A stretch of DNA of 58,100 nucleotides, the filler included, from Basidioascus undulatus (taxonomy: Eukaryota), in NCBI GenBank assembly GCA_000826855.1. It is 6 parts of 6 records of this genome, joined end to end, with 100 filler letters (N's around TTAATTAATTAA, not from the genome) between each part and the next. Parts side by side here need not be neighbours in the genome. Positions count along the whole stretch, not along the records: positions 48,921 to 58,100 come from JTLS01001287.1; 5 more parts are not named here. One strand, written 5' to 3'. This document shows, in pieces, positions 541 through 52,560 of this stretch. The stretch's first letter is position 1. Each line of letters begins with the position of its first letter. Both the position numbers and the translations under genes were made by a program. The notes under the pieces were generated by a model. The model did not search any database. It worked only from the letters and a program-made list of their open reading frames with translations, and was not told where the DNA came from.

Positions 541-1551
541 CAGTCGGTCGGGGCTGCGTTTTGGCTCTTTTTCCTCATCCTGTTCCACCTAATTTCCGAC
601 ATTACACTTGAGCACTGAGCATTCCATCATCGCCCTCAATAGTGTAGCATGCGTTGCTTGCCGTTAAGCCTGCCTGGAGCATTGGCGTGCAGCTTCCCCC
701 TGGACTTCGCAACTATGCATGCTCGACATCGAAGCCGTGGCACGACTGGGCCGTCCAATTTCATACCCCTTCGCATCGACATATGAGCTTGCGTTTCATG
801 TTATCTGCAACCTCAAGACTTCCGGCGAGGACTCTCAGATGTCTGTCTTGGAAAAGCGTCCCCAATGTCTTCATACACTAGCGTTGCCGTGACTATTTAT
901 CTTCGTTACTCTTGTGAAAGACATATGAGGCTAATGAGAGGGACACCTGAAGAGAATGCTCCAAAGTTCAAGAGCATTGCATGGGTCCCCTTGGGTAAAT
1001 TGTTTATGTAAAATGGTGCCATGGAGCAACGACGTATAGCAGGCTGGCACACGGACTCGGGACTTACTCGATGCGGAACAGGTCTCTCCTACGTAAGTTT
1101 GGAGGCAGTTTATCTCCCATCTTAAAGGGCGGAGTCGAAATACTTCAGTTCCTGGTCAGTTACAGGGAAGGACAGGGTACACCAGCCAGTAGTATCAGTA
1201 GTGTCAACAATGTGCGTCGCCGTGAAGGTGGCAATGAAAAATGCCCAACACACAGGTACTGCATGGCCATGCAGTGATCAAGGACCGTGACACCAGTGAC
1301 GTTTCTGACAGGGATGTTGAAGTGGGGTAGTTTGTCTGCGTGGGGCGGATTGAACCAGCGGTCATTCTCGTTGTTGACACGCACGACAAGTTGGAGCTCC
1401 TGGCTCAGAGGGCGAGTAGTGAACGATGCGGCGAGGGGCAAGTGGGCGAGAAGGAAAGAGTTGTCTCGGGATTGTCGTTGAGGTTGGGGCCGCAAGTCGA
1501 GCAAACCACTTCGGTGAGTTGAAGCCTGATCTCTCTGGGCTCTGTGGTTAA

Positions 1552-2020
1552 GGGACTGTCCCTGGCTGGAGGACCATCTCTGGCTGGATGAAAGTTCCAG
1601 GCTGTGGGGCTGTCTTTGGGTGGAGGACAGTCCTTGACTGGAGGACTGTAATTTATGGAAGGACAGTCCCTGGCTGGAGGACTGTCTTTCGGTGAAGGTC
1701 TGTCACTGTCTGGAGGACGGTCCCTGGCGGGAGGATAGTCTTTGGCTGAAGGATGGTCCTTGAGTGAAAGACTGTCCATGATTGAAGGACTGTCCTTGAC
1801 TGGGGGACAGTCCATGGGTGAAGGGCATTCCTTGGTATGAATAATCCCTGAGGAGAGGACAGTCCATGGCCAAAGGACTGTCCATGAAGGGAGGACTGTC
1901 CATCAGTGGGGACAGTCCTTGGGGGGAGGAGAGTCCTTGAGTGAAGGACCGCCTTCAGTGAAGGACAATCCCTGGCTATTGGACGAGTGACAGTCCTTAA
2001 GTGTGGTACTGTCCCTGCCT
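1552..2020. repeat. Degenerate 18-bp tandem minisatellite (~25 units), core palindrome GGACNGTCC
   Basis: Successive units include ggactgtccctggctgga, ggacagtccttgactgga, ggacggtccctggcggga and ggactgtccttgactggg. They produce the D-x-P-P-x-K/R repeat in the minus-strand ORF 1405-1815. Confidence 0.9.
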
Positions 2021-2279
2021 GAAGGACAAAGCCTAGCAGAAGGGAATAGCAAGAGAAAAAAGTGAGATCTAGAAGTAGAAGAAGATCACCAAGACCAAAG
2101 TGAGACAGCAACTCTGAGGTTAGATAGAAGATCTGCTTCAAGGCACAAATAAGAAATAAGAATGGAGTATATTCAGCAGCCCATCACCCTGCCGCCGCAA
2201 TCCAATCTGCCATCAACCTGCCCATCCTTTGGCCAGATCAGCTTTTCTTCCAACCATAACAAAACTGTACAATGTGTCA

Positions 2280-2700
2280 ATGACAGACACCCTGCAGACA
2301 ACCCCTATCTATCATAGACACACTGCAAATACAGCCCGTCTATGATAGACACAGGGTAGACTTGACCTGGCTATGGTAGACACTGGAATGTCTATGGTAG
2401 GCAGCCTGCAGACACCCCTGTCTAGCATACACACCCTGTGGAACTTCAGACACATTTCTATTATTCCAGACACATGTCTATTCTTCCAGACGCATGTCTA
2501 TTCTTCCAGACACACCCTGTTAGTAGTTTCAAACACAGGTCTATCATTCCAGACACATGTCTATTATTCCAGACACCTTTCTATTTCTCTAGACATATGT
2601 CAATTTCCACAGACCCTTCCTCTTTGGATGTTCAGACATGTGCCTATTCTTCTAAAGATGTGTCAATCCTTTAAGACCCAAGTCTAGTTTTCCAAATGCA
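2280..2700. repeat. Degenerate ~20-bp tandem repeat, core AGAC-N4-GTCT
   Basis: Units such as ttccagacacatgtctatta and ttccagacgcatgtctattc recur. Confidence 0.8.
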
Positions 2701-2769
2701 TATGGCATATGAAATTTCAGAGACAGGCCTATTTTTTCAGATGCACAGGCTAGCAGTATTCCCTACAAT

Positions 2770-4560
2770 GAGTCAGACTGAAGCTGTCTGTTGCACATGG
2801 TTTGGTAACACTGAGGCTGTCTTCCTGAGAGTGTGCTTGAAGCAGCCTTCCTTGGACTCCCATCTTACTGTGCCTTGACTGCAGAACAGCAGAGGTTGTG
2901 CTGGTCCTGAAGCAGTATTAAGAAGACTGAAGCAGACTGGAGTAGTGTTGGCAAGACCGAAACTGTCTTAATCAGTCTTATCCAGTCTTGAGCTGTTGGG
3001 ACCAGTCTGAAGCTGTGTTGGCCTCATTGTCACAGTCCTACCCAGACTAATGTGGTCTGAAGCAGTCCAGAGCAGTCCAGAGCCAGTCTGAAGCAGTCCA
3101 TAACCAAACTCAGGCAGCCTTCTCCAGACAGAAACAGACTTGGCCAGACTCACACAGTCTTGGTGAGTCTGATGTAGGTCTTCTTAGACTAAAGGAGTCC
3201 TGGTTTGAGTTAAGCAGGCTTTCTGAGACTGCAACAGTCCAAAGCTGTGTGAAGCAGTCTCGCTTGTGCAGTTTGAGGCAGTCTTGTCTTTTCCGGAACT
3301 CAAGCAGCCTCATTGTAACTGAAGCTGTCTTGTGGAGGCTGAAGTAGTCTTATCTAGACTGAAGTATTCCTTGCTCAGACTGAAGCAGCCCTGCTTAGAC
3401 TAAAGCAGTCTAATGGACTGAAGCAGCCTTGACTTGATTGCCCCAATGCAGCAGTCTTTGCTAGGGAGAAGCTGTTTATCCAGTTAGAACCTGCCATAAC
3501 TCAACCAAAGAAGTAAGCTTGCCCTTCAGAAGGCAAGCATCAGAAGACTGTAATATTCTCCAGAAGGTGGGCTTCACCTCCAGATGGCAGCCATTTCTTT
3601 CAAAAGATGAACTTCACCTTCAGATGGCAGTTAATTCCTTCCAAAAAGGATGTCCCCCTTCAGAAGAAAATCCTTTCCTTCAGAGATGAGCTTCACCTTC
3701 AGGTGGCAGTCATCCCTTACGGAAGATGACCTTCCCTTCAGAAGGCAAGCTTCCCCTTCAGAAGACCAACATTGTTCAGAAGGTGGGCTTCTCCACTGGA
3801 AGGGAGTCATCCCTTTCAAAACACAGTCACTGCAAGGACCATCAATGCAATGACTGTCACTTTCATTGCAACAACTCTCACTGTCTGAGGAAAACTGTCT
3901 GAGTGAGGACTGTCTGTGCACAGACAGTGTGTGAGCTGTGACAGTCAGAGGTGTGATGGCCATAGCAATGACTGTCACTACAATGACTGACTATCTGAGC
4001 TGTGGCTGTCTGCTGTGTGACTGGACCTTTCCTCCACAGGGCAGAGAACCCCTCTGCAGTGTGGGGAACTTGGTCTGGGTGGAGAACCTCTCCACCCCCT
4101 GGAGAACCTCTCCACCATCTGGGGACACTCACCACCAGATGCACTTGCATGCAAGATACACTTCCAACATTGTCGGAAATATCATCCTGAGTGTTTGTAC
4201 AAAGTACTTCCCTCACAGTCCCTTGCCTGGTTCTGATTACAGCCTTGCACTCTGCCAGTACTGAACAGACAGACTTGCCAGATCACTCACATGCAGTTAT
4301 ATACTTCCAAACAACCTAAGAAAGTTCACCTTGAGCATGTGCACAGGGGTTGTTCACTTGCAATCCCTTGGGTTTTCTTCTGGGTGAGAGGGCTTTCTCC
4401 TAGAAGAGTTTCTCCTGCCCCAGGAGATTCTCCTCTAGTGATGGGCGATTTTCTTCTGGCAAGAAGAATTTCTTCTAGATGAGTTTTTCTTGCACCAGGA
4501 GAGTCTCTTCTAAGCTAGGAGATTCCCTTCCGCAGCAGGAGATTGCTTCTGATTGTGAGG
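2770..4560. repeat. Consecutive degenerate minisatellite arrays (agactgaagcagtc; cccttcagaagg; gacWgtc/cactgtc; ggagattctcct), CpG-depleted; probable transposon relic
   Basis: Arrays at about 2770-3430, 3520-3800, 3825-4020, 4060-4130 and 4385-4560. CG dinucleotides are almost absent compared with the CpG-rich genes elsewhere. Confidence 0.7.
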
Positions 4561-4879
4561 TACAATTGTCCATGGGCTGTACTGATTCTCCACTTGAAGC
4601 AAAGATGCTCTGCTCTATCCAACAGGCAGATGCTCCAGCTGATGGAAAGATGATCCACCCGACATAGCAAAACCTTCATGCCCATGTCCGTGTCCCTACA
4701 GATGTCCCTCAACAAACCCTGTCAGTCTGCAACAACTGCCCTAGCCTCCTCGTCATGCTAACTTCCATTTGTAGACCGTAGATCATAGACCGGCACATTG
4801 CGTGGGCATGATCTTCTTAAGGACAAAGTGGGAGTGCCAGGGCTGAGGCATTGGGATGGAATGCAAGGTTAAGACTGTC

Positions 4880-5337
4880 ACAGGACTGTGTTTTGCAAGA
4901 AGTGATAATGACACTTTCGAGGTAAGAAGGGCATGGGGGGCGTGTTGGATGGCGTGGAGCAGAAGCAGACGTGGGCGTTGCAGGCCAGTCGGACCGCTGG
5001 CAAAACGCGGAGCAATAGGGGACTGTTCATTCGGATTAGAGATACAGCGGAGACGTAGGGGGGGTACTCAGGTCGTTGCCCAGAAAAGTTTCACCAGACT
5101 GCAGCGTCCACACACCCGCAGCTTTGGTCCGCCCGGCGGCGCGGGCTTGTCACAGTTCTGGCAGGTCCCATACGCGCGCGAGAGGGAGGACGTAATTTGG
5201 ATCTCGGGTATGCGGGAGGATTCGGAAAGGGAGCTGGGTTGTGGGGCTGCTGGAGAGGCTGGGTGGACGACGCTGATGGTGGTGGGTGGAAAGGTAGGAC
5301 GTCCGAATGGAGACACGTGGGGCAGCGGCGGAACCAT
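4880..5337 (-). pseudogene. MYND-type zinc-finger gene, disrupted or truncated
   Basis: CQNCDKPAPPGGPKLRVCGRCSL..(intron)..PYCSAFCQRSDWP.(H)AHVC gives the CxxC/CxxC/YCSxxCQxxDW/HxxxC pattern. Two 1-nt corrections are needed to restore the frame. Confidence 0.6.
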
Positions 5338-5893
5338 GGTCCGCGGCGAGTGCCCGCTGCGAAACTTTGTCGGTTCGATATTGAGCAAAAGGATCACGGT
5401 TCGTACACCAACATTCACGAGGACATGTTACACAGTCTGTCATGCTCACCAGGCAGGACGGATAAAGGTCACATTGCGTCTGTTGCAGCTTTTAACCGAC
5501 ACTGGCAGTAGTACTGACGTTCTTTCTAGCCGTGGTTTCAATCAATAAGTAAGATAGTCCGAACAATGATAATCACTGAGAATCTTTAGACGGCGTGTTG
5601 ACTATCTCTTGGCGTTGACCAAACGTGCAGTGGCGGGGCCGAGCTTTTCAAACATCTTCCTGACGAGGTTGACGTTAGCAGCCCCATACTCATTCATAAT
5701 TTTGATTTGTTTAAATGGAATGTGCTGTCAGTTCCTGGTTTTATCTGTCAACTACCGTGCTTTGAACTTGGCCTCATGCATGTTGAGGATCCGGAGCTTC
5801 CAACGCCCACGCATGCACATTCAACGCTGGTTTGGAGGCCCAGGCCGCTTTGGTTCAGTGCATAAAGCAGATGTGTTATAGCAGGATCGATCT

Positions 5894-6676
5894 CTAGTAC
5901 AAGCTCAGGGCTCCTCTCGTGCACCCCATCGCTTCCCGACCCGACGAAGGCAGTGGGACAAACTCGACCGCCTTCCATCCCCCTCCCGCTGATCCGCCCT
6001 CCCCCTCGCCCTGAAGCTCACACCTTAGGTGCTCCAGATAGTCCTTGTATTCAGGCGGGACATCCCTCCACGGTAGGTCAATCGTCACCAGCTTGAGCTG
6101 CGGGGTGCGCGAGACCTTTTCCTTTGCGTGCCGCCGCACGAAGCGGAGGTCGTCGACGTTGAAGACTTGTATAACTGAGAGCTGTTCGATTGTGTTGGGC
6201 ATGTAATACAGATAGGCCATCATCCACGGCTTGATCGTCAAAGCTAATAGGCTTGGCGTGAGGAGCTTCAAATGAGCGAAGACGGTGTCCACGAGCATCG
6301 CTGCGGAGATCAAGATCCCAACCGTGGAAGTGCTAGGGAACGACTGCGCGATGGTGAGGCAAAGCCGTCGAGTGTGCCGAAGCGAGCTTTTCGCCGTTCC
6401 AAGGGACCGAAAGTCTCGGTAGATGTACTCTCCACAGAACGGTTTGAGGATGTTCAGGTCCGCAATGTGGATTTCCTCGTACAGCAGCGACGTCGCCTGC
6501 GAGTGCCACTGCTTGTTTACGAGGGCAGCAGATGCGAGTGAGCGGGGATCGAGGTAGCCGAGCACGTGCGCCAGCAGCTCCGGGAGGCGGTGCCAACTCG
6601 CTGCGTCGAGGGGCACGATCGAAAGCGACAGCGAGCTCGAGGAGGAAGCGAGTTGGTTCGAGTGCGTGTGAGCCAT
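5894..6676 (-). CDS. F-box domain protein, single exon, 260 aa
   Basis: Open ORF with N-terminal LPELLAHVLGYLDPRSLASAALVNKQWHSQATSLLYEEI F-box motif. Confidence 0.75.
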   Translation of the reverse strand: MAHTHSNQLASSSSSLSLSIVPLDAASWHRLPELLAHVLGYLDPRSLASAALVNKQWHSQATSLLYEEIHIADLNILKPFCGEYIYRDFRSLGTAKSSLRHTRRLCLTIAQSFPSTSTVGILISAAMLVDTVFAHLKLLTPSLLALTIKPWMMAYLYYMPNTIEQLSVIQVFNVDDLRFVRRHAKEKVSRTPQLKLVTIDLPWRDVPPEYKDYLEHLRCELQGEGEGGSAGGGWKAVEFVPLPSSGREAMGCTRGALSLY

Positions 6677-9017
6677 GGTGAGAAGGAACTACTTGGTGAA
6701 TGCTGGTGGTGATGGTGGGAGGACAGGAAGTGGTGTCCTGGGCATGCGTCAAAGCAATCTGTACCGGGGCCGCGTGGGCACCTTGTGGTTCCTGGAGCGG
6801 GTACACAAACAAACCAGCGGATGCCGACCAGAACCGCTCTGGACAGCAGACAGATGCCGCTTCATTTGCTGCGACCAAAAAGGAAAAATCCCTCAAGAAT
6901 CACGAGCTTTCATACCCCCGAAAAAGGTGCTTGTGATTGCAAGTGAGACGTTGCACCGTCAGCTGTACAGGCCGAGCCGAAAGCGAGCGGCCATTGACAG
7001 TGGACTACCCGTACCGGCTGCAGCGCACAATAGGTCACTCTTCCCAGTTCGATATTTTATGCTCATCAGACCATAGTAAGTTAAGGAAGCACATATTCCG
7101 GAAGAGACAAAAAAGGCAGAGGGGCAGAGGATGCCTACAAACCCGCTGCACAAAGGCAGAGCTAGACTGAGTGAATCAAGGGGATGGGCTCTTCCTCTGC
7201 CGAATCGTAAATATGCATCCAAATATATTTGAGGGATTATACTTGCACGTCAGCTTCGACATCCACACTGAGATGGAATACATCGTCTTCAACGGCGAGC
7301 ACCAAGACCGTACCGTGCCCGCCCAGAGCCGTGCTCGCACTTTCACTTCCCTGCGCTATCTCAGATCATGAAAAACCCCCTGTTTAAAGGAAGTTCCTTG
7401 GGAAGACGTGATGTGTCTATCAGTCGACCAGTGGCATTGTCACTGACGCTCCTGAGTCAGGAGTAGCACAGCAGAGCGGCACCCCCTTTTTCCCTCCGTC
7501 CACTGCATTGCGTTCTTCCCATGAGATCCCCCTCCGAATCATCAATTTAAAGTCTGCGAAGAAGTTCCCGGTGATAGCGAGATTGCTAATATGCTCCCAA
7601 ACCAACGCTAACTTACGCTGCATGGGAGACGGACCGTGCATCAGCAAGGCGCCTTCGCTCTCGGGGGGCTGGACTTGGCCCGCATGCATGTAGGGAAGGA
7701 GAGCCTAAAGATTTCACTTGGGAAGGTCATGGGAGTAAAGGGAGAGGCGCCCGATAGTTCCCTGTCTGTCGACCCTCTAAGAGCAGATGCGGCCGACGCA
7801 GCGACGCAGTGCCCAAGGCAGCTAACCACCCACCCATGCACAGAGGTTCAAAATACCTTCCTCTAGTTCTTTTCCCAGCCAAGATCTTTCCTTCAGCCAG
7901 TTGACCCAAGCGTTTTGAGCCTCAGTGCCTCAGCTCGAGCGCTCTCTGCAACACCTGAGTCGTGCACAGTCTACGCGATACGCCGGAGCAGCGGCGCCGC
8001 CTCACTTAGTCTAGCATTTCTTGCCTTGTCCACTCCCTCATCCAGGTCGCACACGGTGATAAAGTATGTGGAGGGGTTGGGCAAACGGTTGATACTTGCA
8101 TGCCAGCCTGCCGCGGCCGCACTGCCGTAGCAAATTGCGCATCTCGTTCACCTCTCATCTGTGAATACACCCGTGCGCACAGCGTCGATCTATACTTCGA
8201 CATTTCCCATCCCCATAGCGGGATATTTCATCCCACATCCGACACGTCCCACAGAGCACAACATGTGAAGATGAGCAGAGCAGGTCGAGCGGCAGCGGTC
8301 AGTCTCGCAACTGTTGCAGGCAGTCCTGGCATACTCATGCTTATTCCTTGCTGATGCTACAAAACACACTAAGACACGATTACTTGCTCCATGAGTTTGA
8401 GACCCTGTCCCGTACTCTCTCTCTAACTAGTCCACTGACTCCCCTTGCCGCATCAGTCCAATCGCCTCCTCCTCGGCATGCGTAGTTCGGAGTACGTAGT
8501 TCGTAGTTCGTAGAACACAACCAAGTCGTTTCCACAATGGCCATGGAGAGCCTCATCGACGTGATCATTGTGAAAATCAGCTTCCTCGCCCTGGGGTGAA
8601 CGGCACACAAATACAGCCTGTCTACCCACGTCAGACTTTGTGGCCGTTCCACTTAATCTTCTGCGATGCAGTTGCCGCCTGTGTACGTGAAGCGGCACCG
8701 CTGTCGCTTGCCTCGAGCGCTATTCGACGGTTCGTGTTGCAGCGTTCGAGTACAATATTTTCGAAATATTGTCATTGGCAAGGGGATCAGACCCAAAGCG
8801 ACAAGTAACCTAACAATTTGGCACTCCTCCTCGTCGCGGTGCTCAGAGAACATCTACCTCACGTGAAGTGCCGACCAACGCGTTGCGCGCCTTCCTCCCT
8901 TCCTGCCCTCGCTCCTCAAACGCCGTCGAGATCCTCGCCCTCCTCATCCCCTTCGCATCCTACACATCTTCAAGCACATAACTATCACACACAACACCGC
9001 ACACTCGATTGTCTACG

Positions 9018-22362: not shown

Positions 22363-23105
22363 TTAAGCAGCCTCGATCTCGGCGATGTACCCCTTGCTCT
22401 CCTCGGTGTCGGACTTGCGGAGGATCTGTCCTCCCTTCGTCAGTGGGTTTCTAGAAGGGAGGTCATGGGGCAGGGAAGGAAGGAAACGAAGGGGGAGAAA
22501 GGAAACGGGACGGACCTCGATCAGCGCGTCGACGTACTCTTTCTGCGCGTCCTCCTTCGACTTGCCCTCGACCTTCTTCCAGGCGTCCCTGTGGATGGGG
22601 GTGCATGAGAGGAACGTTAGCGAGGGAGGAGAGAGGAATGCGGAGAAAGAGGGAGAGGGAATGGGAATGGGAAAAAGAACGTACCACTTGGCCTTCCCAA
22701 CGAAGTCGAGCATCCCCGGGCGCGCGGTAGTGTTGTCACCCTCCTTGACTGATCCCCCCCAGCCCAACCAGTAACCATCATGGTGTCAGAAACCAGCCCC
22801 GGCCGACCGAATGCAAGGCAGATGAGGAGCCGCACGCACCCTGCTTGAACAGCGCGTAAAACTGCGGCGTTCCAGCAGGAGTCAGCCAACACACACCCGG
22901 AACGGGATGGAAAGTGCGATGAACAGACGCAGATGCACCTTGAGCTTCTCGTCCTGCGTCGGCTGGACGGGGCCCTCCTTCGGCAGAGACCCGACGATAG
23001 CGACAGCCTGTGTGTGCGACGACCCCCGAACTCAGCCCATCAGCTTGCGCGCCCGACGCGCTGCCGCGAGTCGGAGTGCACCTTCTCGAACTTGGCGGCG
23101 GACAT
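22363..23105 (-). CDS. ACB1: Acyl-CoA-binding protein, 6 exons
   Basis: MSAAKFEK|AVAIVGSLPKEGPVQPTQDEKLK|FYALFKQ|..EGDNTTARPGMLDFVGKAKW|DAWKKVEGKSKEDAQKEYVDALIE|ILRK... Confidence 0.93.
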
Positions 23106-23528: not shown

Positions 23529-24376
23529 TCATCCCCTCGCCCCCGCCTCCCCCTCGCTCTGCAAAGCCGCCATCGCCTCCCTCCACTGTTCCGGCGTATT
23601 AGTATTAACCAACCACCTCTTATCAATCGGCCTGACGAGCCCCCTCCCCTCAACCATCCCCTCCGGCGCATTGACGTCCTTCCATATCTGGCGCGCAGTG
23701 AAGCACGGCCCCGTCTTGCCCGCCTCGACGTTGTACCGCAGGCGCGCAAGCCCGTCCGGCGTCCACACCGCCATGAGCGGCTCGGGGTGCCCGTCTTCCG
23801 GGTGCAGGTACGCTGTGACGGGCGCGGGGGCCGTGGAGGAGAGGTGCGCTTGGAGGAGGTACGTGAGGGCGGAAGGGGTCACGAGGGGGAAGTCGACGGC
23901 GAGGACGAGGAAGGTCGAGTCGGGGTGGGCGGCCTGCGAGACATCGGGAGAGCCCTGAGTCAGCGTACATTTACAACCGGGGGAGAGATACATACGCACA
24001 TGAGCGGCCAAGAGACCTGCAGCAGGCCCAATATCGTGCCCTGGCTCATCGAGCACGACGGACATGCCGTCGGACAGGGTGTGCGGTAGCTGGGGCAGCT
24101 GGACCTGCCTCGCGGAGAGGCAGACGCCGTCCGGGCAGAGCGGGAGGAGGAGGGAGGCGTTGCGGAACCAGAGCGGGGTGGGTTCGGACGCGGCGAAGGA
24201 AATCGAGGGGGGCGCGTAGGGGAGGAGCGACTTGTCGGTGCCCACTGTGCGAGGGGGTTGCGAGAACGGTGAGATCTGTATATGGAGGGGAGAGGGAGAC
24301 GCTGAGAATGCGCACTTCGGGTAGAGTGCCCGCCGAGGAGGACTAGCCCGCGGAGAGGAGTCGTCGGCGCGGCCAT
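23529..24376 (-). CDS. mobA: Molybdenum cofactor guanylyltransferase (MobA-like NTP transferase), 3 exons, apparently intact
   Basis: LVLLGGHSTR-M-GTDKSLL (intron 24315-24245 splits the Met codon), DIGPAAGLLAAH, FLVLAVDFP, PEPLMAVW and LVNTNTPEQW match the MobA GGxSxRMGxDK, GPxxG, D-P, PL and NxNTP motifs. Confidence 0.88.
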
Positions 24377-24856
24377 CGTGCTCGTGCTCGTCGGTGTCGC
24401 TGAGTGTCCTATCGTCGTGGCCAGCACCGCAGTGGTCGTCGTCGTCTGTGAACAAGCTGTGTTTTCCTTTAGCAGAGCCCGAGCGTTACGAGGCGGTGCT
24501 CGCCATGCGAAACGGTGTGTGAGACTGAGACGCTGCCGTGCCTTGCAGCGCCATCTCCAAATGACGCCACCTGGTTCATCCAGACTCCTCCTCGATTGAG
24601 CAACGCCTCGGCCTCAAGCCTCATGAGGAGCATCATTGATTCTTCGACAATTATATGTTCTCTGCTCCCCAGCAGTGTTGTGGTCAGGCTGCTCCACTCA
24701 TTGTTTCCGATGCTATTGACCTCCTCCACCGATTGAGTGCCATTCGGCACATGCGAGCCACTGACCACACCCTCATGAATCTGCCCGCTATTCGTGGACG
24801 CTCGCTCGCTGGGCATTCGTCGTGGGACGATGCCCGTCGATCATCCTCCATTCTTC

Positions 24857-28100: not shown

Positions 28101-29645
28101 TGATAAACGCCCTGCAGCGCCGTGCTCAGCAGCCTCTCATTGAGAAGCTCACGGGCGGTTCCGGCATCCAGTAGCCGTGCAACGAGTCCGCTCCGAACGG
28201 GACCGAGCGACTGTACACGGACGGTGTATTCCCGACTGACGACGACCACTGCGAGGTGCGTTTGCACTTTCTCGGTCTCCGGCACCACTGCGTACTGAGA
28301 TACCTGTTGCGCCGGCATGCACAGCTGGGGCCACGACCTTGAGACGGGAACGCAACGCAGTACCGCTCCTTGAACCCGCCGGGAGGGCGATTCTGAAGAC
28401 GGCGCACTTCCGCGAGGCGGAGGACATGCCGAACGAGAAGTTCCCTTTCCTGCTTTCTACTGGCCATCGGGTTTACCAGTGCGTTCCATACTTCCGCCAG
28501 AACAAGGCTTACTAACTTGAATCTTTCACTTCCCTTCTCAGCAGCCGCACGAAGACGGGCCGCAGCAAGCGCCTGCAAGACGCGTCGCCCGAGAGCTTGG
28601 CACAGATCTCCGAGTCGGACACCGCGCGCCTGGGCCTCTCCGCCGGCGACCACGTCGTTGTCCGCTAGCGTACGGGCGGAGCGTTCGAAGTGCCGGTCAA
28701 GATTGGCGAGATCGAGGACGGGCACATCTACGTGCCCTTCCACTTCGGTTCGTTCGACGGCGGCGGCGGCGGCCGCGCGCAGTCCGCGAACGAGCTCACG
28801 AGCTGCCCCTGGGACAGCGTCCCGAAGCAGCCGTTCTTCAAGGGCGTGGCGGTCGAGACCGAGCGCGTCCCGGCCGGCGGCGAGGTCCTCATCCACGAGA
28901 GCTCGAATCGCCAAGCGGGACGCGGCGAGGCACAGCACCGACAGCGTGACCAAACTGAGGTCGAGGGGCGGCAGCAGGCACCTCGAGGACTTCGTGGGGC
29001 TGTGGGACGCTTACTCCGCAGAGATCCCCGAGATCTTCTAGTACCTCATCGGAGGTCTTGACCAGGACTACGAGATGCGGTCCGGCATCAAGGTCTTGCT
29101 CGAGTTCGCGGAGGCGGCGATCGAGGCCCTGAAGCCTTTCACAGAGAAGTATGTCCAATCACTCGGGTTTCCCTACGATGCCGGTGGCTTGTTCATCTTG
29201 CTCAATTATTTTACCAATTTCGCAGATACGGCAACAAACGTACCGTTGCTCAGAAGGATACCGACACAGTTCGCCGCGTCCTCTTCCCTGTAAGCGCTCA
29301 CCTCATTCATCCTCCAGCCTATCAGGATTCGTCCCTGCTTTTGACATAGCCACCCTCTTTTAGACCGAACGTCGCGGCCACGGGCCGTTCGACATCTTCA
29401 TGAAGCTGCAGGGCCTCGCCATCTTCGTTTCGGCGATCCAGGCGCACCTCGCGGCGCTGACGCCCGCGTTCAAGGCGCTGCACGACAACGACTTTAGCGA
29501 GCTGATCCTTCGCGTGGTTAGCCACTCTGGGCGCGTTCAGTCCTGGGTCCAGGCCAAGATCTCGTTCAAGGCACCGCAGGCACTCATCGTGCCTGCGCCG
29601 CGTGCGCTGGGGACTTTCCTGCCCACGGACGAGAACGAGGAGTGA
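25177..29645 (+). pseudogene. DMSO-reductase-family (Mo-bis-MGD) oxidoreductase, NapA/NasA nitrate-reductase-like, intron-rich; nonsense codons, frameshifts and an internal inversion (26649-28140)
   Basis: Motifs EEPEKWVQSTCI.CSN.CG.G.GVKDGKIAGVRG, DRLTQPLIR, LHMDGNTRLCTATAAKSMRDSFGCDGQPGSYTDID, GTNLAVLNG, LTGGSGIQ*PC, VPFHFG, ANELT..WDSVPKQPFFKG and C-terminal APQALIVP. In-frame TAG at 25300, 26248, 28172 and 28666. Confidence 0.9.
26649..28140 (-). other. Inverted central segment of the oxidoreductase gene
   Basis: Minus strand reads ERLLSTALQGVYQSNQ, ASACAVNNINIVRGKIGRPG, GQPTAQNNMETGCDGE, FPGFRNH, MFWISGTNPAVSLP, TNVDRTVH, VEPPGEARTDL and DYTGFS. This is exactly the part missing between the plus-strand LREAAKV and EKLTGGSG. 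Confidence 0.9.
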
Positions 29646-30246: not shown

Positions 30247-30346
30247 NNNNNNNNNNNNNNNNNNNNNNNNNNNNNNNNNNNNNNNNNNNNTTAATTAATT
30301 AANNNNNNNNNNNNNNNNNNNNNNNNNNNNNNNNNNNNNNNNNNNN
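30247..30346. other. Artificial contig linker
   Basis: N44-TTAATTAATTAA-N44. Confidence 0.98.
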
Positions 30347-30408
30347 TACTCTACCATTGAGCCAGCCGGCCGTGACCGACGCAGGGATCGAACCTGCAAC
30401 CCCCTGAT
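30347..30408 (-). tRNA. tRNA-Trp-like gene in permuted order: 3' half (30408-30373), 1-nt spacer (30372), 5' half (30371-30347, cut by contig end)
   Basis: Minus strand ATCAGG GGGTT GCAGG TTCGATC CCTGC GTCGGTC A | C | GGCCGGC TG GCTC AATGGTA GAGT A. The T-arm and D-arm fold, and GGCCGGC pairs with GTCGGTC. Trp is inferred from similarity to eukaryotic tRNA-Trp; the anticodon is not visible. Confidence 0.8.
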
Positions 30409-31659
30409 CTCAACTACCACTAGTTACGCTTTGTGGTGAGAACTAAACCCATTAGTACATATATGTAAGTTTCTTGGAGAATGAAACTTCGAAAAGGGGC
30501 TAGACAGTGAGAATTAGCGCCCACAGTCATGTAAGCGGAGGCAAGAGTTCTACTGCGTTCCATGCGACCCAGCATAAGACCTGCCAAATCTGCATTGACA
30601 GCCATAATACGGACGCACAGCTTCTTACTCGAACGAACAGTCAAGCAAAAACAATGAAACAGCAAGCACCGCCACTGCAAGATATTTACCACATCCCACC
30701 AGTCTCATTCTTCCACACCCTGTCCGAGAACCGTCCGAACGTGCCCCTCCAAACCTGGTTTGCAAGCTGCAACCACCCACCACCGCCCAGTCAATCGTTC
30801 ACACGCAGATCTTCGAATGTACAAGTGAACTACTTACCCCGATAGCAAACACCAAAGTCAAGAGAACCAACTCGACCCTATTCTGGCCGATCGGCCTGCT
30901 GGAGAAGTCGACGTTGGTGTTGAGCAGTCGGTGGTGCGGCATGCTGCGTACGTCGGTTGGCCAGTAGGGAGGGTCGTTGATCGTGCGTGGCTCAGGGAAG
31001 GCCTGCGACTCAGACCGCCGAACGGATGTGATGCTCGCCTGCGGAGAGCGGTCGGTGGACGCCGCGGACTGGTCGGCGTGGCCGATGAGCGAGAGGGTCG
31101 ATGTGGCTCCTGGAGGGATACCGGCGCCTCCAGACGGTCGTCTGCGTTTGCTGGCGCAATTCGGACCTTATCACTGTGCGGAGAGGAGAGGGAATTCAAC
31201 TGCTGTCGGACACTTAAAGAGTGGCGAGACGTACAGCGCTGCCTTTGTGAAACGTGAAAGCTTCGCCAGGTGGTGGAAGGGGAGCAGCGTAAGACCGGAC
31301 TGAATTAACAGTGCTGAATATTATTCGGATCCCTATCTCAAGGAGAACAGTTAGAGGAGATGCCACGGGACCGAGCAAGGGCGGACAGTCGGAAGCGCGA
31401 GTCCGCGGCCGGTCGCAAGGGCGTCTGGGAAGTCGTTCTCGCCAGCAAGCGTCCGACCCGTATAGCTCGTCTCTTCCAGTTCCAGCAATCGTAGTCAGAG
31501 AACTATCATCCCTCAATAATCATCATCCCTTCGAATACTCCGTCGAATATGCGCCTCTGTAGCAGCGTTGCCAATTTCTCAAGCCGCCCCCTCTTTCAGC
31601 ACCTCTTCCCGTCTTCGTCTCGGCAACGGCGCTTCTCTTTCACACACGGCGCTCACGCT

Positions 31660-34411: not shown

Positions 34412-36580
34412 ATGGGCGACAAAGGTGGCGTGGCCGAAGCCGAGGCGATTGCCGACCGCCACGCGATGGTATACGACAAAAAGGCAGAGGTTTTGGACGC
34501 TGCGGAAACGAAGGTCAGCGACCTTGTGGAAGGAGAAGAAGTGCCTACGGTGGAGGAGGTTCAGTGAGCCTTTTCATGACCGACATTCGGGGAAGCGAGC
34601 GCGACTAACTGCATTTCTACGTGCATGGCAGCAACCTCCGCAAGGTCGCAGACAGGATCCCGTTCCGGGCTTTCCTTGTTGTTGTCGTAGAGCTCTGTAT
34701 GTCAAGTTACACAATGTCTCGGTTCTAAGAGCTGATGGAAGTTGTTATAGGCGAGCGCTACTCCTACTACGGAACGGTAAGACGAAGAGTACCAAAATCT
34801 CCCTGCCTGCCAATGCTGACCTCTTGGTGGATGCTATACACTCATTGCAGACGGGACCACTCACGAGTACGCATCATTAACGCTAACAATCTTCGTACCA
34901 CTGACTCACCGACCTTGTCGAAATAGACTACAGTCAGTCTGTTGTTCGATACAAGTTTGGCGGTCTGCCTGACAAACAGTTACAATTGCCACGCAGTTCA
35001 ACAGCCTCTTCCTCCTGGTTCCAAGTCTGGGTCTACGCCCAAGGGATTCCTGTAAGATGATATTCCACTGACTTTGAGTGCCAGCACATTGAAAAGGGGG
35101 CTCTGCAGCGGTCCAGCGGGCGCTCTCGGCCAAGGTCAACGCACAGCAACCGCCTTGATGACTTTCCTGTCCTTCTGGTGGGTCACCTTACGCTCCCGCT
35201 TTGCTTCCGAATGAACACTTATCGCCATTTTCAGGTGTTATGTTACGCCCGTGCTCGGGGCTATTCTGGCGGATGTCAAATGGGGCCGCTTCAAAGCCAT
35301 CGTGATATTCACCTAGTGCGTTGATGGCGTCTCCAAACGAGCGATTGTTTTTCTGAGTTGATGCCTCCTGGGACACCTACAGCGTATGCCTCATTGGGCA
35401 CATCATTTTGACCTTGACTTCAATCCCTCAAGCGCTAGAAACCCCCAAAGGAGCTCTGGGCGGGTTGGCTGTTGCCTTGGTCATCAGTGGGTTATTCGAC
35501 CATGGCCGTCTAAGTTTATTAGCTCATGTCTCTCTGGGTACTTGAAAACAGTGGGACTTGGCACAGGTGGTATAAAAGCAAACGTGCGCTCATCTCTGTC
35601 TTTCTCGGAAATCAGCACCGCCTGACATTGCGAGTGAGTGTTTAGGTGTCTCCGCTGGTAGCCGAACAGTACCAGAAGGGCATGGCCACCAAGAAAGTCC
35701 TCAAGTCCGGTGAGACTGTCATTGTCGATGTACGCCGCCTTTCGCTTCCAAACTCGGTTCGTGAGCCCACTGTTTGCATTCCACAGCCCTCCCTCACCGT
35801 TCAAAAGATTTACCTCTACTTCTACTTCTGCATGTTCGTTTAAGATTCTCCTTTTTTTGCTAAGGAACTCACCTTGGTCCTGCATCAACGCAGCAACGTT
35901 GGCAGTTTGGCCGGGATCTCGACGTGAGTCGACTTCTCAGGCCGTTCTCCCAGTAGAACAAACTTCCAGTTCACCCTGCATTCTAGCATCTACTCTGAGA
36001 AATATGTCGGTGTACGTCTCATGCTTGCACTGTGAACCTATATTTTTAATGTACTGATCATGCTTTCCACATGGCAGTTCTGGCTTGCTTGTACGTCATT
36101 GAAGGACTCGCAGGTACCTCAGAGCATCAGATGGAATCATTATTCCACCCACAGTCGCGCTTCCCACCATCGCCTTCTTTGTGGGTGTTGCGATAGTCAT
36201 ATTAATGGAGGGACAGAACTAATGCCTCAACCTGACTTTCACTTAGTTTGTCCCCTGGCTCCTTCACGGGTTCTCCAAGCACTACGTCAAGACGGCCCCC
36301 CGCGGCTCGATTCTTTTGGATGCCTGCCGCGTTTTCAGGACGTCGGCTCGTGGCAGGTGGTCCTTGAACCCGCTCGCGACGTATCGCAACTTCAAGACGG
36401 GCGACTTCTGGTCAGCAGCAAAGCCGAGTTCCTTCCTTGCTGGCGGAGCCAAGGGCGAGTCGGAAAGGCCGCAGTGTTGACTTGGGACGACGGTGAGTCC
36501 ATAATTTCAATTTCATGATCCCGTAGGGGGAAGGAGATCAAGATTCCTGACACTCAAATGAGCACAAAGTTGTTCGACGA
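34412..36580 (+). pseudogene. PTR2: POT/PTR2 peptide transporter copy A: 5' half only, truncated and frameshifted near its end
   Basis: Motifs NLRKVADRIP, ERYSYYG, GALGQGQRTATAL, YVTPVLGAILADVKWGRFKAI, GLGTGGIKANVSPLVAEQY, TVQKIYLYFY and PRGSILLDACRV. 1-nt deletion in QWLTWDD and an AG->AA acceptor change relative to copy B. Confidence 0.75.
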
Positions 36581-37822: not shown

Positions 37823-39539
37823 CTACTGCTTCTCGTCGACGAAGCCTTCGCGCTTGCCCTTGCCGATCTGGTTCAGCTCTGTAGAATATAGATCAGTCAG
37901 TCCATTCATCACAGTGCCCGAAGAGGTAAAGAACAGGCAGACATACCTTCTTCCTCCCTATCGAGGCGCCTGAAAGTGAAGAAGAAAGCAAGGCCGGCGA
38001 CGAAAGCAGCACAAGCGATACCGGTGTCTGGGGAGCAAAGGACAGGGCTTGAGCCTCGCGTGTATTATGACGAAGAATGGACTTACAGTTGCCGACAAGG
38101 TAGGGGTCGTTTGCCACGGAGGTCAGCGCGAACCCGAGGGCCTTCAAAGGGCAAAGGTCAGCATTTTCCGGCTTGTGGAACTCCGGAAAGAGCGTTACCG
38201 AGGCGATGGCATTCATGAAGAGGTTCACTGCCATGACGACCGAGCGCATACGCGCAGGTGCCTCTGAGTATAGAAAGTACATCAGAGCGAGAGCCTGAAG
38301 AGGATGTGCCGAGAAAGCAGTGAACTTACTGGTGTACGCGTACTCGAGCGTGGTGCTAGAGTTCCGTTACAGTCGTCAGTTGCCATTCACTGCCCAGATT
38401 AACTGAAACATACATGGAGGCAAAGATCTCGGAAAGGCCGATCAAAAGATATGAAGGTGCTTGCAGCCAAACATTGAGGTCGGCTGTGAGGACTTGGTCA
38501 TCCTGGTCCGTGCTAAAAGAACATGCAAAAATCCTTCACGTGAGATTGGCACGTCCAAGGGTGGTATAAGAACTGGCCATGTGGCAGCTCTGTCGCCACA
38601 AGGGCTGAGCGCGTAGACGCGGGACTGGATGACCGCTGAGTAGACCTGTTGCAGGATGTCAGAATGGAAGAATGGGGCAGCCTGAAGCCAGAGAGACTCA
38701 CCATCGCCGCGGACGCCGCCATGAACCCGCAAGTAATGCGGCGGATAGGGGTGAAACGAATCTTGAACTTCCGCAGAGTAGGGTCTGTCGAACACCAACA
38801 ATATTAGTCAAAGTCTCCGCCAGGTGTTATTGGTCAAGACCAGACGTACAGACAATCTGGTCCATGATGGGGCTGTCGGCGCTGCGTCAGTCAAAAGCCA
38901 CCAAAAATCTTACTCTCGCGACTGTACTTACATCATGCTGTGAAGTACAAGACGGCATCAGCATCAACTGCAAGGACAAGACCATTCACTGTCGCTTACA
39001 TGATGCTGAGGGGAGGGGCATAGCGGCATCAGCGCCGATAGTAATCAGCGCAAGAAACCAATGCTTACAGTGAGATCGGGTTCAAATTTTGGACTGATTG
39101 GAAATTGTATTAGTGTGGACTTCGGTAAAGATATCTGAAGGTACCCACTGAGATCATTGGGCGTTCCATTCAACCTCATGGCCGCAGCCTGTGAGACGAG
39201 GTTGTTCGTTTGTTGATTATAAGCCAGCTGCCGATCCCGAACGGTCCGGATGGTTAGGATTCGATCAAGTTACGTTCAAGAGACAGAAAACTACCCAATA
39301 GAGGGGCATGAAAAGGAACACTTTGCACGCCCGAAGCGCCCGGGCAAGCTCGTCGACAAACTCTGTACTCGCCTGGGCGTCAGGATTCTTGATCTCCTTC
39401 ACCTTACAAAGACCAGGGATTCATTTTATTGCTCACCGTCGTCCCAAGTCAACCACTGCGGCCTTTCCGACTCGCCCTTGGCTCCGCCAGCAAGGAAGGA
39501 ACTCGGCTTTGCTGCCGACCAGAAGTCGCCCGTCTTGAA
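37823..39539 (-). CDS. PTR2: POT/PTR2 peptide transporter copy B, 3' half; 5' part beyond the contig end
   Basis: QWLTWDD|FVDELARALRACKVFLFMPLY, WLAYNQ, NNLVSQAAAMRLNGTPNDL, FTPIRRITCGF, NVWLQAPSY, IGLSEIFAS, LEYAYT, APARMRSVV and C-terminal EGFVDEKQ*. Confidence 0.88.
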
Positions 39540-45943: not shown

Positions 45944-46495
45944 ATGTTCATCCCGGCGGTCCCATTGAGGTTCATAGGCTCATCATCGAGGAAGTGGGCG
46001 CTCCCTCGCAGCCGCTCGCGTACACCCAGGACTCCGCCACCTTGGCCTCGCTCTGCCTTGTCTCGCGTTCCTTCCATCTGGAGGCGACTCCACTTCTCTA
46101 CCGCTCGATCGCACTCCGAGATATCAGCGACAGGGGGAAACTCTTCGACACAGCGCGATCGAATCCAAGCCTTCTCGCCCACCGACGGTCGTTGCTGGCT
46201 CGACAAGGAGGTCCACCTGTTACTCTCAAATGTGTATGCTCCTCGCCGCCTTTCTATGAAGCTTCTAATTTTACCGCCCTCTATTATGGGATGAGATATG
46301 TGGACTCGTATCGGGAGTTTCATGTGCCATTTCTTTCGCGGGGTCTTCCATCCTCGCTCGCACAAGTCACCCGCTTCGCGTTTCTGAAATTGATTTTTCA
46401 TCCGCGGAGCATGTTCAAGCTCTGCTTTCCCTGCGCCGTCTCACCCATGTCGCCTTTCTGCAGTATGAGAAGGATGCACCTTCGCAGCAGCCCAA
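45944..46495 (+). pseudogene. F-box-like 'PS[HQ]PLAY' family fragment, frameshifted after its ATG and running in frame into CDC1 exons
   Basis: MFIPAVP/IEVHRLIIEEVGAPSQPLAYTQDSATLASLCLVSRSFHLEATPLLYRSI. Confidence 0.55.
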
Positions 46496-48820: not shown

Positions 48821-48920
48821 NNNNNNNNNNNNNNNNNNNNNNNNNNNNNNNNNNNNNNNNNNNNTTAATTAATTAANNNNNNNNNNNNNNNNNNNNNNNN
48901 NNNNNNNNNNNNNNNNNNNN
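48821..48920. other. Artificial contig linker
   Basis: N44-TTAATTAATTAA-N44. Confidence 0.98.
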
Positions 48921-48988
48921 GTCAGATACTCTACCATTGAGCCAGCCGGCCGTGACCGACGCAGGGATCGAACCTGCAACCCCCTGAT
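48921..48988 (-). tRNA. Second tRNA-Trp-like gene in permuted order: 3' half (48988-48953), 1-nt spacer (48952), 5' half (48951-48921, to C32)
   Basis: Core identical to 30347-30408. The 5' half extends to TCTGAC, and its TCTGA pairs with the TCAGG of the upstream 3' half (anticodon stem). Confidence 0.82.
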
Positions 48989-49957
48989 CTCGACTACCAC
49001 TTGCTTACGCTGGGCGGTGATGGACAAACCCTTGTCAGACTTATGAATCCCAAACTTAATTCTTCAGCATCCTAGTGATTGAGCTCTACTGCAGGGGGAG
49101 GTACCTTGAATGTGCCTTTGCCTTGTATTCCAGAACTCCCCCGGACAGCAGGGCCCTCGTGCTCCAGAAGTGCACATCCGCATCGACTTCAACCTTCTTG
49201 CAGAGCCTCGCTCTTAGTAAGGCCAAATCAGAATGTATAACTCCGTCCCCAACTTACCAATGCCACGCAAGCGTGCGGTGGGCCCCCTGAAGAGGGGTTC
49301 GTTGGGGGGTGGAAAGACAAGGTTCAGGCCAATGGGCAGGTTCGCATGAACAGATTGTCAACTTTAGGAGAGACTGTCGAGGTTCTCTGGATGGAATAAA
49401 GCGCTGAATTTGTTGTAAAGAAAAATTGGAGGTAACAAACCTGCAATAAACCTTCCCTGGTAGGTACATAACCTCCAACCAGGCCAAAGAGCAGACCTTT
49501 CCTTTGAACAAACCGTACGGCAGACGAATGACACCCCCGCTTCAGACATTCGAGCTTATAGATGACTTACCGACTGGAAATGAAGAACAACTATCTTTCC
49601 ACCCTCCGCTTGGAGGTCCTGCGAAGACAAGGGCAGGGTCGGGTTCTCAGCCACTGCGACCTGTTGTTTCATAAGAGATCATCTTACAATAGGAACGTTA
49701 CAATGTGAGGAGCTTTAACAAGAGAAACCTCTACATAGTGGTCAGTCTACGAGAGCTTGCTGCTGGGCTCGTCGCTAGTTCATTTTTTTAATTACAATGC
49801 CGGTAGCGGAGATAAATTACGCGTTCCGGTTGGGGCAAAAACATTCCATGAATCTGTTCAATGACTCAGGTAATTCAAGTTCAAGGACACCAGTGCTGCG
49901 ACTCAACGACAAACAACAAACGGCGTTCAATGTTTCAGTCGATCGCATTGTAACGCG

Positions 49958-51579: not shown

Positions 51580-52560
51580 ATGCGGGGGCAGCTGTCCAGC
51601 GCACCCTTTCACACTCACTTTCACACTAACAATTCCCGTGCGCCTGCTGGCACTTTGTCCCTTGACCACTACCCTCTGCCCATCGCCTTGATCTCCTCGT
51701 CTCGACTCTGCTCAACCGCGCAGAGCCTCGCACGCCCCGCTTCGATCTCCGGGCCTCCTAAGCTCTCGCACGACATTCTCTTACTCATTATCGACTCACT
51801 GGCCTCACCGTCCCATCCGCTCGCATACGCCCTCGAATCCCACACGCTTGCATCACTGTGCGTCGTCTCTGGTTCGCTCCATTCCCCGGCATCTGCAGCG
51901 CTCTACCGCTCGATCGTCTGCCACAATGGCTCCTGCCAGACCTGTGTAGCGCGGACGTTCCGTGCGTGGCCAGACCTCGCGGCTCACGTCCACTCGATCG
52001 CATTCTGCTTCACGGCCGCGCCCCGCGGGCCCGGGCGCGCGGCAGTGTACGCCCACTATGCGGACGAGCTCCGCACCATCCTTGATGCGGTCGCGCCCAC
52101 CGCATCGCGACGGGCTGCCTCGCTGGGGGAGTGGACCGTGGCGGGTCTGCGCCAGTGTCTCGGGAAGGCCGTCCATCTGGAGGAGCTCGTTGGGGAATGG
52201 TTCAACTCGCTGGCGCACCTCGCGATCGGCCATCCCGCATGCCGCAGGATTGCGCACCCGCACATCGAGCACTGGGACTCCCGCTCCTGGGACCCCAGCA
52301 TACCATTCCCAGCACTCACGCACTTCGTCGCCGGCTCGCGCCGAGACACGCTTTCGAGCAAGATGCAGGACCTCGTGCGCTCGGTCGAGCGCACACCGGC
52401 GCTGCAGCGCGTAGGGATGGTGCTGAACTGGGGGCCAGGTCCCGTGCTCCCGCGCAGCGTTGCGGAGCTGCAGGAGGCGCTGGCGGAGCTCGCGCGCGCA
52501 GAGAGGGCCTGGAAGTGGTTGGCAGCCTGGAGTGTATGCGACATCATGCAATCTCACTAG
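51580..52560 (+). CDS. F-box-like 'PSHPLAY' family protein, single open exon; true start uncertain
   Basis: 326-aa ORF with PKLSHDILLLIIDSLASPSHPLAY...LASLCVVS...LYRSI, PDLAAHVHSI and FPALTHF. Confidence 0.65.
   Translation: MRGQLSSAPFHTHFHTNNSRAPAGTLSLDHYPLPIALISSSRLCSTAQSLARPASISGPPKLSHDILLLIIDSLASPSHPLAYALESHTLASLCVVSGSLHSPASAALYRSIVCHNGSCQTCVARTFRAWPDLAAHVHSIAFCFTAAPRGPGRAAVYAHYADELRTILDAVAPTASRRAASLGEWTVAGLRQCLGKAVHLEELVGEWFNSLAHLAIGHPACRRIAHPHIEHWDSRSWDPSIPFPALTHFVAGSRRDTLSSKMQDLVRSVERTPALQRVGMVLNWGPGPVLPRSVAELQEALAELARAERAWKWLAAWSVCDIMQSH

Follow-up and report, generated by a model that had tools for sequence, protein, structure and literature searches.

A dispersed tRNA-like element with its 3′ half ahead of its 5′ half: a candidate family of permuted tRNA genes in a probably fungus-like eukaryote

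So far, permuted tRNA genes are on record as single, essential genes of archaea and of a few unicellular algae. Genes of type II (junction 37/38) have been reported in Cyanidioschyzon merolae, Ostreococcus/Micromonas, the Bigelowiella nucleomorph and Auxenochlorella (PMC3978253, PMC12636532, PMC13578239), the last of these having been added in 2025 (PMC12636532). In Table 1 of PMC3978253, Thermofilum pendens is entered under type IV, with a tRNA-Tyr of 1-base intervening sequence, spacers range from 1 to 74 bases (5–74 in eukaryotes, the sole 1-base case being archaeal) and the genes are single or few per genome. Section 4 of the same review gives U8, R15:Y48, G18G19, U33 and U54U55C56 as consensus elements of the exons of permuted genes. 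In passages from the reviews PMC3978253 and PMC13578239 (2026), permuted tRNA genes are named in algae and archaea only, and a literature search returned no fungal permuted tRNA gene by title among the matches listed. A related architecture is found in bacterial YrlA RNA. YrlA of M. smegmatis, which has a closed 7-bp acceptor stem, undergoes RNase P cutting and CCA addition (PMC4201824), and this processing provides a precedent for the opening of a closed acceptor stem.

In this study, a stretch of 58,100 nucleotides (the window) was analysed, which consists of six contigs of approximately 9–11.6 kb each, with artificial spacers between them. These are non-biological N runs around TTAATTAATTAA (e.g. 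48821–48920, unstranded, and a like spacer at 30247–30346). The contigs beginning at 30347 (copy 1) and at 48921 (copy 2) both open with a back-to-front tRNA-like element on the minus strand. Read on that strand, the order is the same in both copies: (i) a leader, (ii) tRNA positions 38–73, (iii) one C, (iv) the tRNA 5′ half from G1, and (v) the contig end.

In copy 2 (all parts on the minus strand), the distal leader (49011–49046) is diverged from, but homologous to, that of copy 1; it carries the blocks CATA, GGGTTT and TCACC, and a weak AT-rich word, CATAAG, at 49040–49045. The proximal leader, GCGTAAGCAAGTGGTAGTCGAG (48989–49010), is near-identical in copy 1 and common to many members of the family; it holds AGTGG, an A-box-like word, and a G three bases before A38. 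The 3′ half (positions 38–73; 48988 to 48953) comprises A38, the anticodon-stem 3′ strand TCAGG, the variable segment GGGTT, the T arm GCAGG/TTCGATC/CCTGC, the acceptor 3′ strand GTCGGTC and the discriminator A73. A one-base intervening sequence, C, at 48952 separates A73 from G1. The 5′ half (positions 1–32; 48951 to 48921), which is cut by the contig start, comprises the acceptor 5′ strand GGCCGGC, TG, the D arm GCTC/AATGGTA/GAGT, A, the anticodon-stem 5′ strand TCTGA and C32, and its positions 1–31 match the Rfam tRNA model with 15.9 bits.

Copy 1 (likewise on the minus strand) has a distal leader at 30430–30466, with a TATA-like word, CATATATG, approximately 51–58 bases upstream of A38, and a proximal leader at 30409–30429, one base shorter than that of copy 2 and with T instead of C at the place of 48992. 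Its 3′ half (positions 38–73; 30373–30408) is identical to that of copy 2 and is followed by the single C at 30372 and by the first 25 bases of the 5′ half (30347–30371), which the contig start cuts six bases earlier than in copy 2. The window copies stop at C32 (copy 2) or earlier (copy 1), and their contigs end before U33, the anticodon, the trailer and the terminator are reached. Runs of four or more T between leader and contig end are absent from both window copies. A search with a 49-base junction pattern (up to 3 mismatches allowed) gave exactly two matches in the window, 30349–30397 and 48929–48977, with 0 mismatches each, the mean over 100 shuffles being 0.00. The first-pass annotation of this DNA, which had reported a 3′ half–C–5′ half arrangement at the starts of two contigs, was right on this point; the identity of 62 nt that it gave is correct for 48927–48988, the identity being actually 65 bases.

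The two halves make up a single cloverleaf. All four stems form when the 3′ half, which comes first, pairs with the 5′ half behind it; the acceptor stem has seven pairs (two of them G–T), and the visible invariant bases are all intact (U8, A14, A15:T48, G18G19, A21, G53:C61, T54T55C56 and A58). As in permuted genes, the 3′ half precedes the 5′ half on the same strand, and the spacer at the acceptor boundary, for which 1–74 bp are on record, is a single C at 48952 and at 30372, i.e. at the bottom of that range and free of any promoter or terminator. ARAGORN called no tRNA in native order, either in the whole window or in a 140-base native control, and called a 72-base tRNA when the halves were re-joined. 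Three of five constructs were called (a join at 32/33, five N in the loop, and a +3 shift, which gave a 4-letter anticodon); the native order and a −3 shift were left uncalled. The tRNA body may be that of a tRNA-Trp, the anticodon itself lying outside the window. The minimum-energy fold of the 70-base core is the back-to-front cloverleaf, with the T arm, a closed acceptor hairpin, the D arm and a closing stem. The folds computed were no more stable than those of shuffled sequences (z of 0.89, 0.00 and −0.06; −0.06 for the 70-base core), and the fold energy gives support neither way.

No Rfam family reached its gathering score anywhere in the window. With relaxed thresholds, the sole notable match, present in both copies (2/2), was the tRNA-like part of YrlA (gathering score 69), with 34.6 bits and an E-value of 4e-6 for copy 2, and 28.7 bits and 2e-4 for copy 1. 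Taken together with the minimum-energy fold, this match would fit a stable, non-decoding tRNA-mimic RNA comparable to the tRNA-like domain of bacterial YrlA, in which the tetraloop C-A-C-G would close the acceptor stem and the leader and trailer would pair below the equivalent of the anticodon stem; we consider such an RNA very unlikely. The scores are far below the gathering score and cover only features that any back-to-front tRNA shares, so that the match reflects a common order and layout of arms, not membership. YrlA (RF02553) and the element do have the same succession of T arm, closed acceptor stem and D arm, but YrlA is a bacterial and phage RNA which adjoins rsr (Ro60), contains a Ro-binding stem and lacks an anticodon, whereas the element is eukaryotic, multicopy (a copy number in the tens would be unusual here) and reaches half the gathering score. 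A Ro60/Rsr neighbour was sought among 184 distinct translations of open reading frames (ORFs) of the window, and no TROVE/Ro60 match was found.

Relatives of the element were also sought in other collections. A metagenome scan for a T arm followed by 14–22 bases and a D arm yielded four loci, none of which is this element. One of them (L001) consists of two adjacent complete tRNA genes, and in two more (L002 and L003) the match holds a single tRNA gene that attains the gathering score. The fourth (L004:401–446, minus strand) has a T arm and then a D arm, and between them a 6-bp hairpin, closed by a TTTG loop, substitutes for the acceptor stem. This is a YrlA-like layout, but the locus reached no Rfam gathering score. 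The exact junction had no occurrence in viral contigs and none in 185,579 prokaryote genomes.

Comparison of the two window copies revealed a single mismatch in 75 bases (48927–49001), the C/T difference at 48992, which is followed by nine more matches. BLAST joins 105 bases of the copies at 91.5%. The leader stretch 49002–49046 (approximately 45 bases) is still alike, with a score of 31 that was reached by none of 500 shuffles, and an alignment of the distal leaders has 34 matches, 6 mismatches and 9 gap columns among 49 columns. Beyond 49050 no likeness between the two contigs was found (120 of 500 shuffles reached the score). The divergence of flanking DNA noted earlier therefore holds beyond 49050, but not for the adjoining ~45 bases of leader. 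The element is the sole sequence common to the two contigs and, since they share nothing else, copies 1 and 2 represent two loci; two alleles of one locus are ruled out.

The difference in divergence between core and leader, assessed on these two copies, is significant (Fisher p = 0.007; binomial 7e-5). Neutral repeat copies would be expected to decay evenly along the element, and this expectation failed (1 mismatch in 75 bases versus 6 mismatches and 9 gaps in 49 columns). The lower divergence of the core than of the leader suggests that the tRNA part is subject to constraint or to gene conversion; the latter could give the same uneven conservation without any function.

To follow the element outside the window, Logan contigs of three public runs (X1, X2 and X3) were aligned to 48921–49320. 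Runs X1 and X2, which come from two studies, contain the 2-kb stretch completely, and the assembly may derive from either or both of them; X3 contains 14% of the sampled words of that stretch. Element-bearing contigs numbered 52 of 24,453 in X1 and 53 of 16,194 in X2, and the 52 contigs of X1 fall into likeness classes of 99+ (23 contigs), 95–99 (21) and 90–95 (8). Contigs of 4220 and 18542 bases span the junction and extend at least 31 letters to either side of it. The depth of exact-core contigs was 298 and 175 in X1 (against 17.8 in unique flank) and 473 in X2 (against 41.7), i.e. the exact core has ~10–17 times the single-copy depth, which corresponds to about 10–17 copies per variant. The estimate was taken from these contigs, since summed depths (1332–3982 in X1 and 3160–8678 in X2) overstate the copy number owing to the 30-base overlap of neighbouring contigs. 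Unlike upstream DNA begins between 48998 and 49012 in at least 11 contigs of X1 and 10 of X2, and some of it again contains GGGTTT...TCACC blocks, with AT-rich words further up.

These data support three claims of the first-pass annotation. The arrangement is not a single misassembly, given that the junction is bridged in the Logan contigs of both X1 and X2; the element is multicopy, as the contig counts, the depth and the differing upstream exits agree; and the breaks of both window contigs at the element, which had been ascribed to a multicopy repeat, are accounted for by its copy number.

The same abundance is what would be expected of a non-coding, dispersed repeat derived from a tRNA, with no working tRNA, which might be the head of a SINE-like retroposon or might consist of pseudo-tRNA arrays that arose from reverse-transcribed circular or concatenated tRNA bearing one C of the CCA. 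This explanation, which we hold to be somewhat unlikely, draws on several observations. There are tens of copies with a spread of divergence (the X1 classes above; 5 differences in 57–71 bases in several long contigs), both window contigs break at the element, and the copies lose likeness at varied points within 48998–49012, as is seen in repeats that are 5′-truncated or diverged. AT-rich DNA often lies upstream, possibly because such a repeat prefers it as a target. An A73-C-G1 junction would be expected from the copying of a circularised, partly CCA-tailed tRNA, following a scenario outlined in section 10 of PMC3978253. Several features are at odds with a repeat, however. Between the window copies, the tRNA part is much better preserved than the leader next to it, and every visible invariant base of the tRNA is intact. 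The leader has no detectable tRNA derivation; its interpretation as a decayed tRNA 5′ half or upstream unit is not supported, because shuffled sequences scored as well (547 and 536 of 2000; 288, 627, 417 and 581 of 1000).

In a tRNA-derived SINE the A box precedes the B box, and a body, an A-rich or repeat tail and target-site duplications complete the structure. The element resembles such SINEs in its tens of dispersed copies, its tRNA-related sequence, its Pol III signals and the assembly breaks that it causes. It differs from them in that its boxes, although intact, are in the order B then A, which is wrong for a SINE head, in the concentration of conservation on the tRNA part, and in the lack of an A-rich or simple-repeat tail in the sole downstream view, where a T run follows a canonical anticodon loop. 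The primer-binding site of an LTR element was also considered and rejected, the plus strand being the complement of 41 tRNA bases without CCA.

Head-to-tail arrangements of ordinary tRNA genes are a further point of comparison. In the co-transcribed dimeric tRNA genes of yeast, two units stand head to tail with a very short spacer, and the upstream unit is a complete tRNA. The element likewise has two tRNA-type units head to tail, probably on one Pol III transcript; unlike in yeast, its 3′ half is not preceded by a tRNA 5′ half. An arrangement of ordinary tRNA genes, tandem or dimeric, was rejected on these grounds: the upstream unit is incomplete, ARAGORN calls no tRNA, Rfam detects none upstream, and the leader shows no significant likeness to a 5′ half.

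The DNA that follows the 5′ half was seen in a single family member. A single contig, found identically in both X1 and X2, deviates from the window sequence at 48923 (G30 to A) and runs past the window end, where it reads, on the minus strand, C32, T33, ACG, A37, then C, and then six T. To judge from its sequence, this member looks like a canonical anticodon loop with a Pol III-type stop directly after position 37. Such a T run is the layout expected of a type II permuted gene, as observed in this one member, and an ordinary intron-bearing gene could not carry a stop at that place. The canonical C-T-NNN-A loop also argues for a decoding tRNA and against a tRNA mimic, for which the trailer of this member (~7 bases before the T run) would be too short to form a Ro-binding stem. 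The T run is known from this single member, whose ACG differs from what the tRNA body suggests, and the member may be another isoacceptor or a decayed copy. The proposal that other isoacceptors of this genome are permuted as well has gained one hint, namely this ACG at the anticodon place, and stands at that.

It is in this region that the element has to be weighed against an ordinary multicopy tRNA gene, perhaps with an intron, that lies behind what is left of a tandem duplicate (an intron end and a 3′ exon). The window would then contain only this remnant and the real gene as far as base 32, and gene conversion from the gene next to it would keep the remnant identical. We judge this arrangement to be unlikely, even though the window contigs end before the anticodon and leave room for a complete gene downstream. 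The leader might be taken for the end of a tRNA intron, with its TGG word and the G at −3, and the abrupt end of conservation near 49002–49012 would follow from conversion between two 3′ halves at the same locus. The summed depth of 48963–48990 is about twice that of the junction and the 5′ half, a figure which may include overlapping contigs counted twice. Against a duplicate, the six T after position 38 in the member described above would stop Pol III inside any intron. Moreover, the contigs of 4220 and 18542 bases span the 3′ half, the junction and kilobases of further DNA, each as one aligned piece, which argues against a second identical 3′ half nearby at those loci, and neither joints nor second placements were found in X1 or X2 (0 in both).

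Run X3 offered a different picture. One of its contigs (45 bases) carries the 5′ half five bases beyond the window end and stops where position 37 would be. Another (93 bases) contains the acceptor 3′ strand, the C and the 5′ half as far as the D loop (...AATGGTAG), followed directly by TCGAGA, the last six bases of the leader, and the 3′ half; it represents a 63-base cycle (window 48931–48993), at the join of which lies TGGTAG, a word that the D loop has in common with the leader. X3 contains no leader letters upstream of 48993. Either a shortened unit repeated in tandem, in a related strain, or a circular molecule might underlie the cycle. It fits the tandem multimers expected of a repeat, it is unpredicted by a permuted-gene model, and it keeps the idea of a decayed upstream unit alive, as a lead only.

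The element is best, though tentatively, read as a family of circularly permuted tRNA genes of type II (junction 37/38), in which C74 would form the one-base spacer; we favour this reading over the others, but regard it as possible and, on balance, doubtful. The dispersed family itself is real and has tens of copies; on this reading, each would be a Pol III-type unit composed of a leader of ~20–55 bases, positions 38–73, C and positions 1–37. A permuted family is suggested because the 3′ half comes first, the halves form one cloverleaf, no tRNA exists in native order, the invariant bases are intact and conservation is uneven; it is suggested further because a T run follows position 37 in one member and the unit is free of T runs in the window copies.

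For such a gene, transcription would start in the leader and stop at the T run just past position 37, the promoter being the upstream AT-rich word and/or the A-box-like AGTGG of the leader together with the B box in the T arm. The halves would fold into the cloverleaf, with the C closing the acceptor stem. The tRNA splicing endonuclease would cut off the leader before A38 and a short trailer after position 37, and tRNA ligase would join 37 to 38, producing a circle of ~74 bases. A hint of the splice site comes from the leader, which ends in ...G-A-G before A38; its G at −3 could pair with C32, in line with the anticodon-intron pair rule. The single base at 48952 is most simply taken as an encoded C74, in which case one RNase P cut between C and G1 would leave a linear tRNA ending in A73-C74, to be completed by the CCA-adding enzyme, and the one-base spacer would need no 3′ trimming.

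Several points speak against a permuted gene. The tens of copies, with members 5–9% diverged, look more like a repeat family; the position of the B box upstream of the A box is wrong for TFIIIC; and the upstream AT-rich words are weak in copy 2, which has only CATAAG at the place of the TATA-like word of copy 1. Compared with the permuted genes of algae, the element shares (i) a 3′ half upstream on the same strand, (ii) acceptor ends that meet at a short spacer, (iii) invariant bases that are intact as far as they are visible and a 3′ half that starts at A38, (iv) an AT-rich word ~50 bases upstream, which stands out in copy 1 but is weak in copy 2, and (v) a T run after the 5′ half, the last as six T in one Logan contig. 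It departs from the known eukaryotic cases in its spacer (one base versus 5–74) and from known permuted genes in general in its tens of copies, some of them diverged, versus one or two. Unlike the algal cases, its host looks non-algal and intron-rich.

With regard to the host, the window contigs are eukaryotic, as they contain an F-box domain and an ACBP gene with short introns. The latter, the split gene for acyl-CoA-binding protein (ACBP; 22366–22785, minus strand), has short exons and introns of roughly 60–80 bases, and is the clearest eukaryotic sign in these contigs. Overall, the host probably resembles a non-algal, intron-rich, fungus-like eukaryote; were it a green alga, the element would add one more case to a class already described. 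The Pfam matches among the 184 distinct ORF translations were limited to MobA-like NTP_transf_3, F-box, ACBP and Molydop_binding. Homologues of the F-box ORF, and of an ORF of 336 residues, were absent from the results of a homologue search, and a protein atlas search of the window proteins gave no usable match.

Several further observations concern the window in general. A eukaryote-like contig carries an ORF for a MobA-like molybdenum cofactor guanylyltransferase (23532–24485, minus strand) and a molybdopterin-dinucleotide-binding domain (28669–29058, plus strand). The homologue search with the MobA-like ORF gave 22 matches, the best being metagenome proteins with 48–51% identity, and named fungal homologues had 30–34%. 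This cofactor system is mainly prokaryotic, and the two may therefore have been acquired together by horizontal transfer. A 192-base inverted repeat with 86% identity (39350–39539 and 36391–36580) has one arm at the far end of the copy 1 contig. The first contig contains local direct repeats of 68–81% identity (1553–1947, 2426–2617 and 3522–3821), and a weak similarity (69% over 133 bases) connects 45979–46111 and 51784–51916, which belong to different contigs.

Taken to its full extent, the proposal is that a non-algal, probably fungus-like eukaryote encodes one tRNA, perhaps several isoacceptors, only as tens of permuted genes with a one-base spacer (C74), the tRNA maturing via a tRNA circle, one RNase P cut and CCA completion; in this full form we consider it rather unlikely. 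If the element is a tRNA-derived repeat, it would be a modest curiosity. If the proposal is true, permuted tRNA genes would be known for the first time from beyond the algae and archaea, and for the first time as a multicopy family, and the tRNA would seem to be missing from annotation, given that ARAGORN calls none in the window and that short-read assemblies break at the element. Spacer removal would be simple, with an encoded C74 and one RNase P cut, and the family would be a natural test of Pol III recruitment by a permuted gene in a TFIIIC-dependent host. It would also bear on the origin of permuted genes, by tandem duplication or by reverse transcription of circular tRNA. The known distribution of the permuted layout would be widened, and a permuted gene would be seen spreading through a genome.
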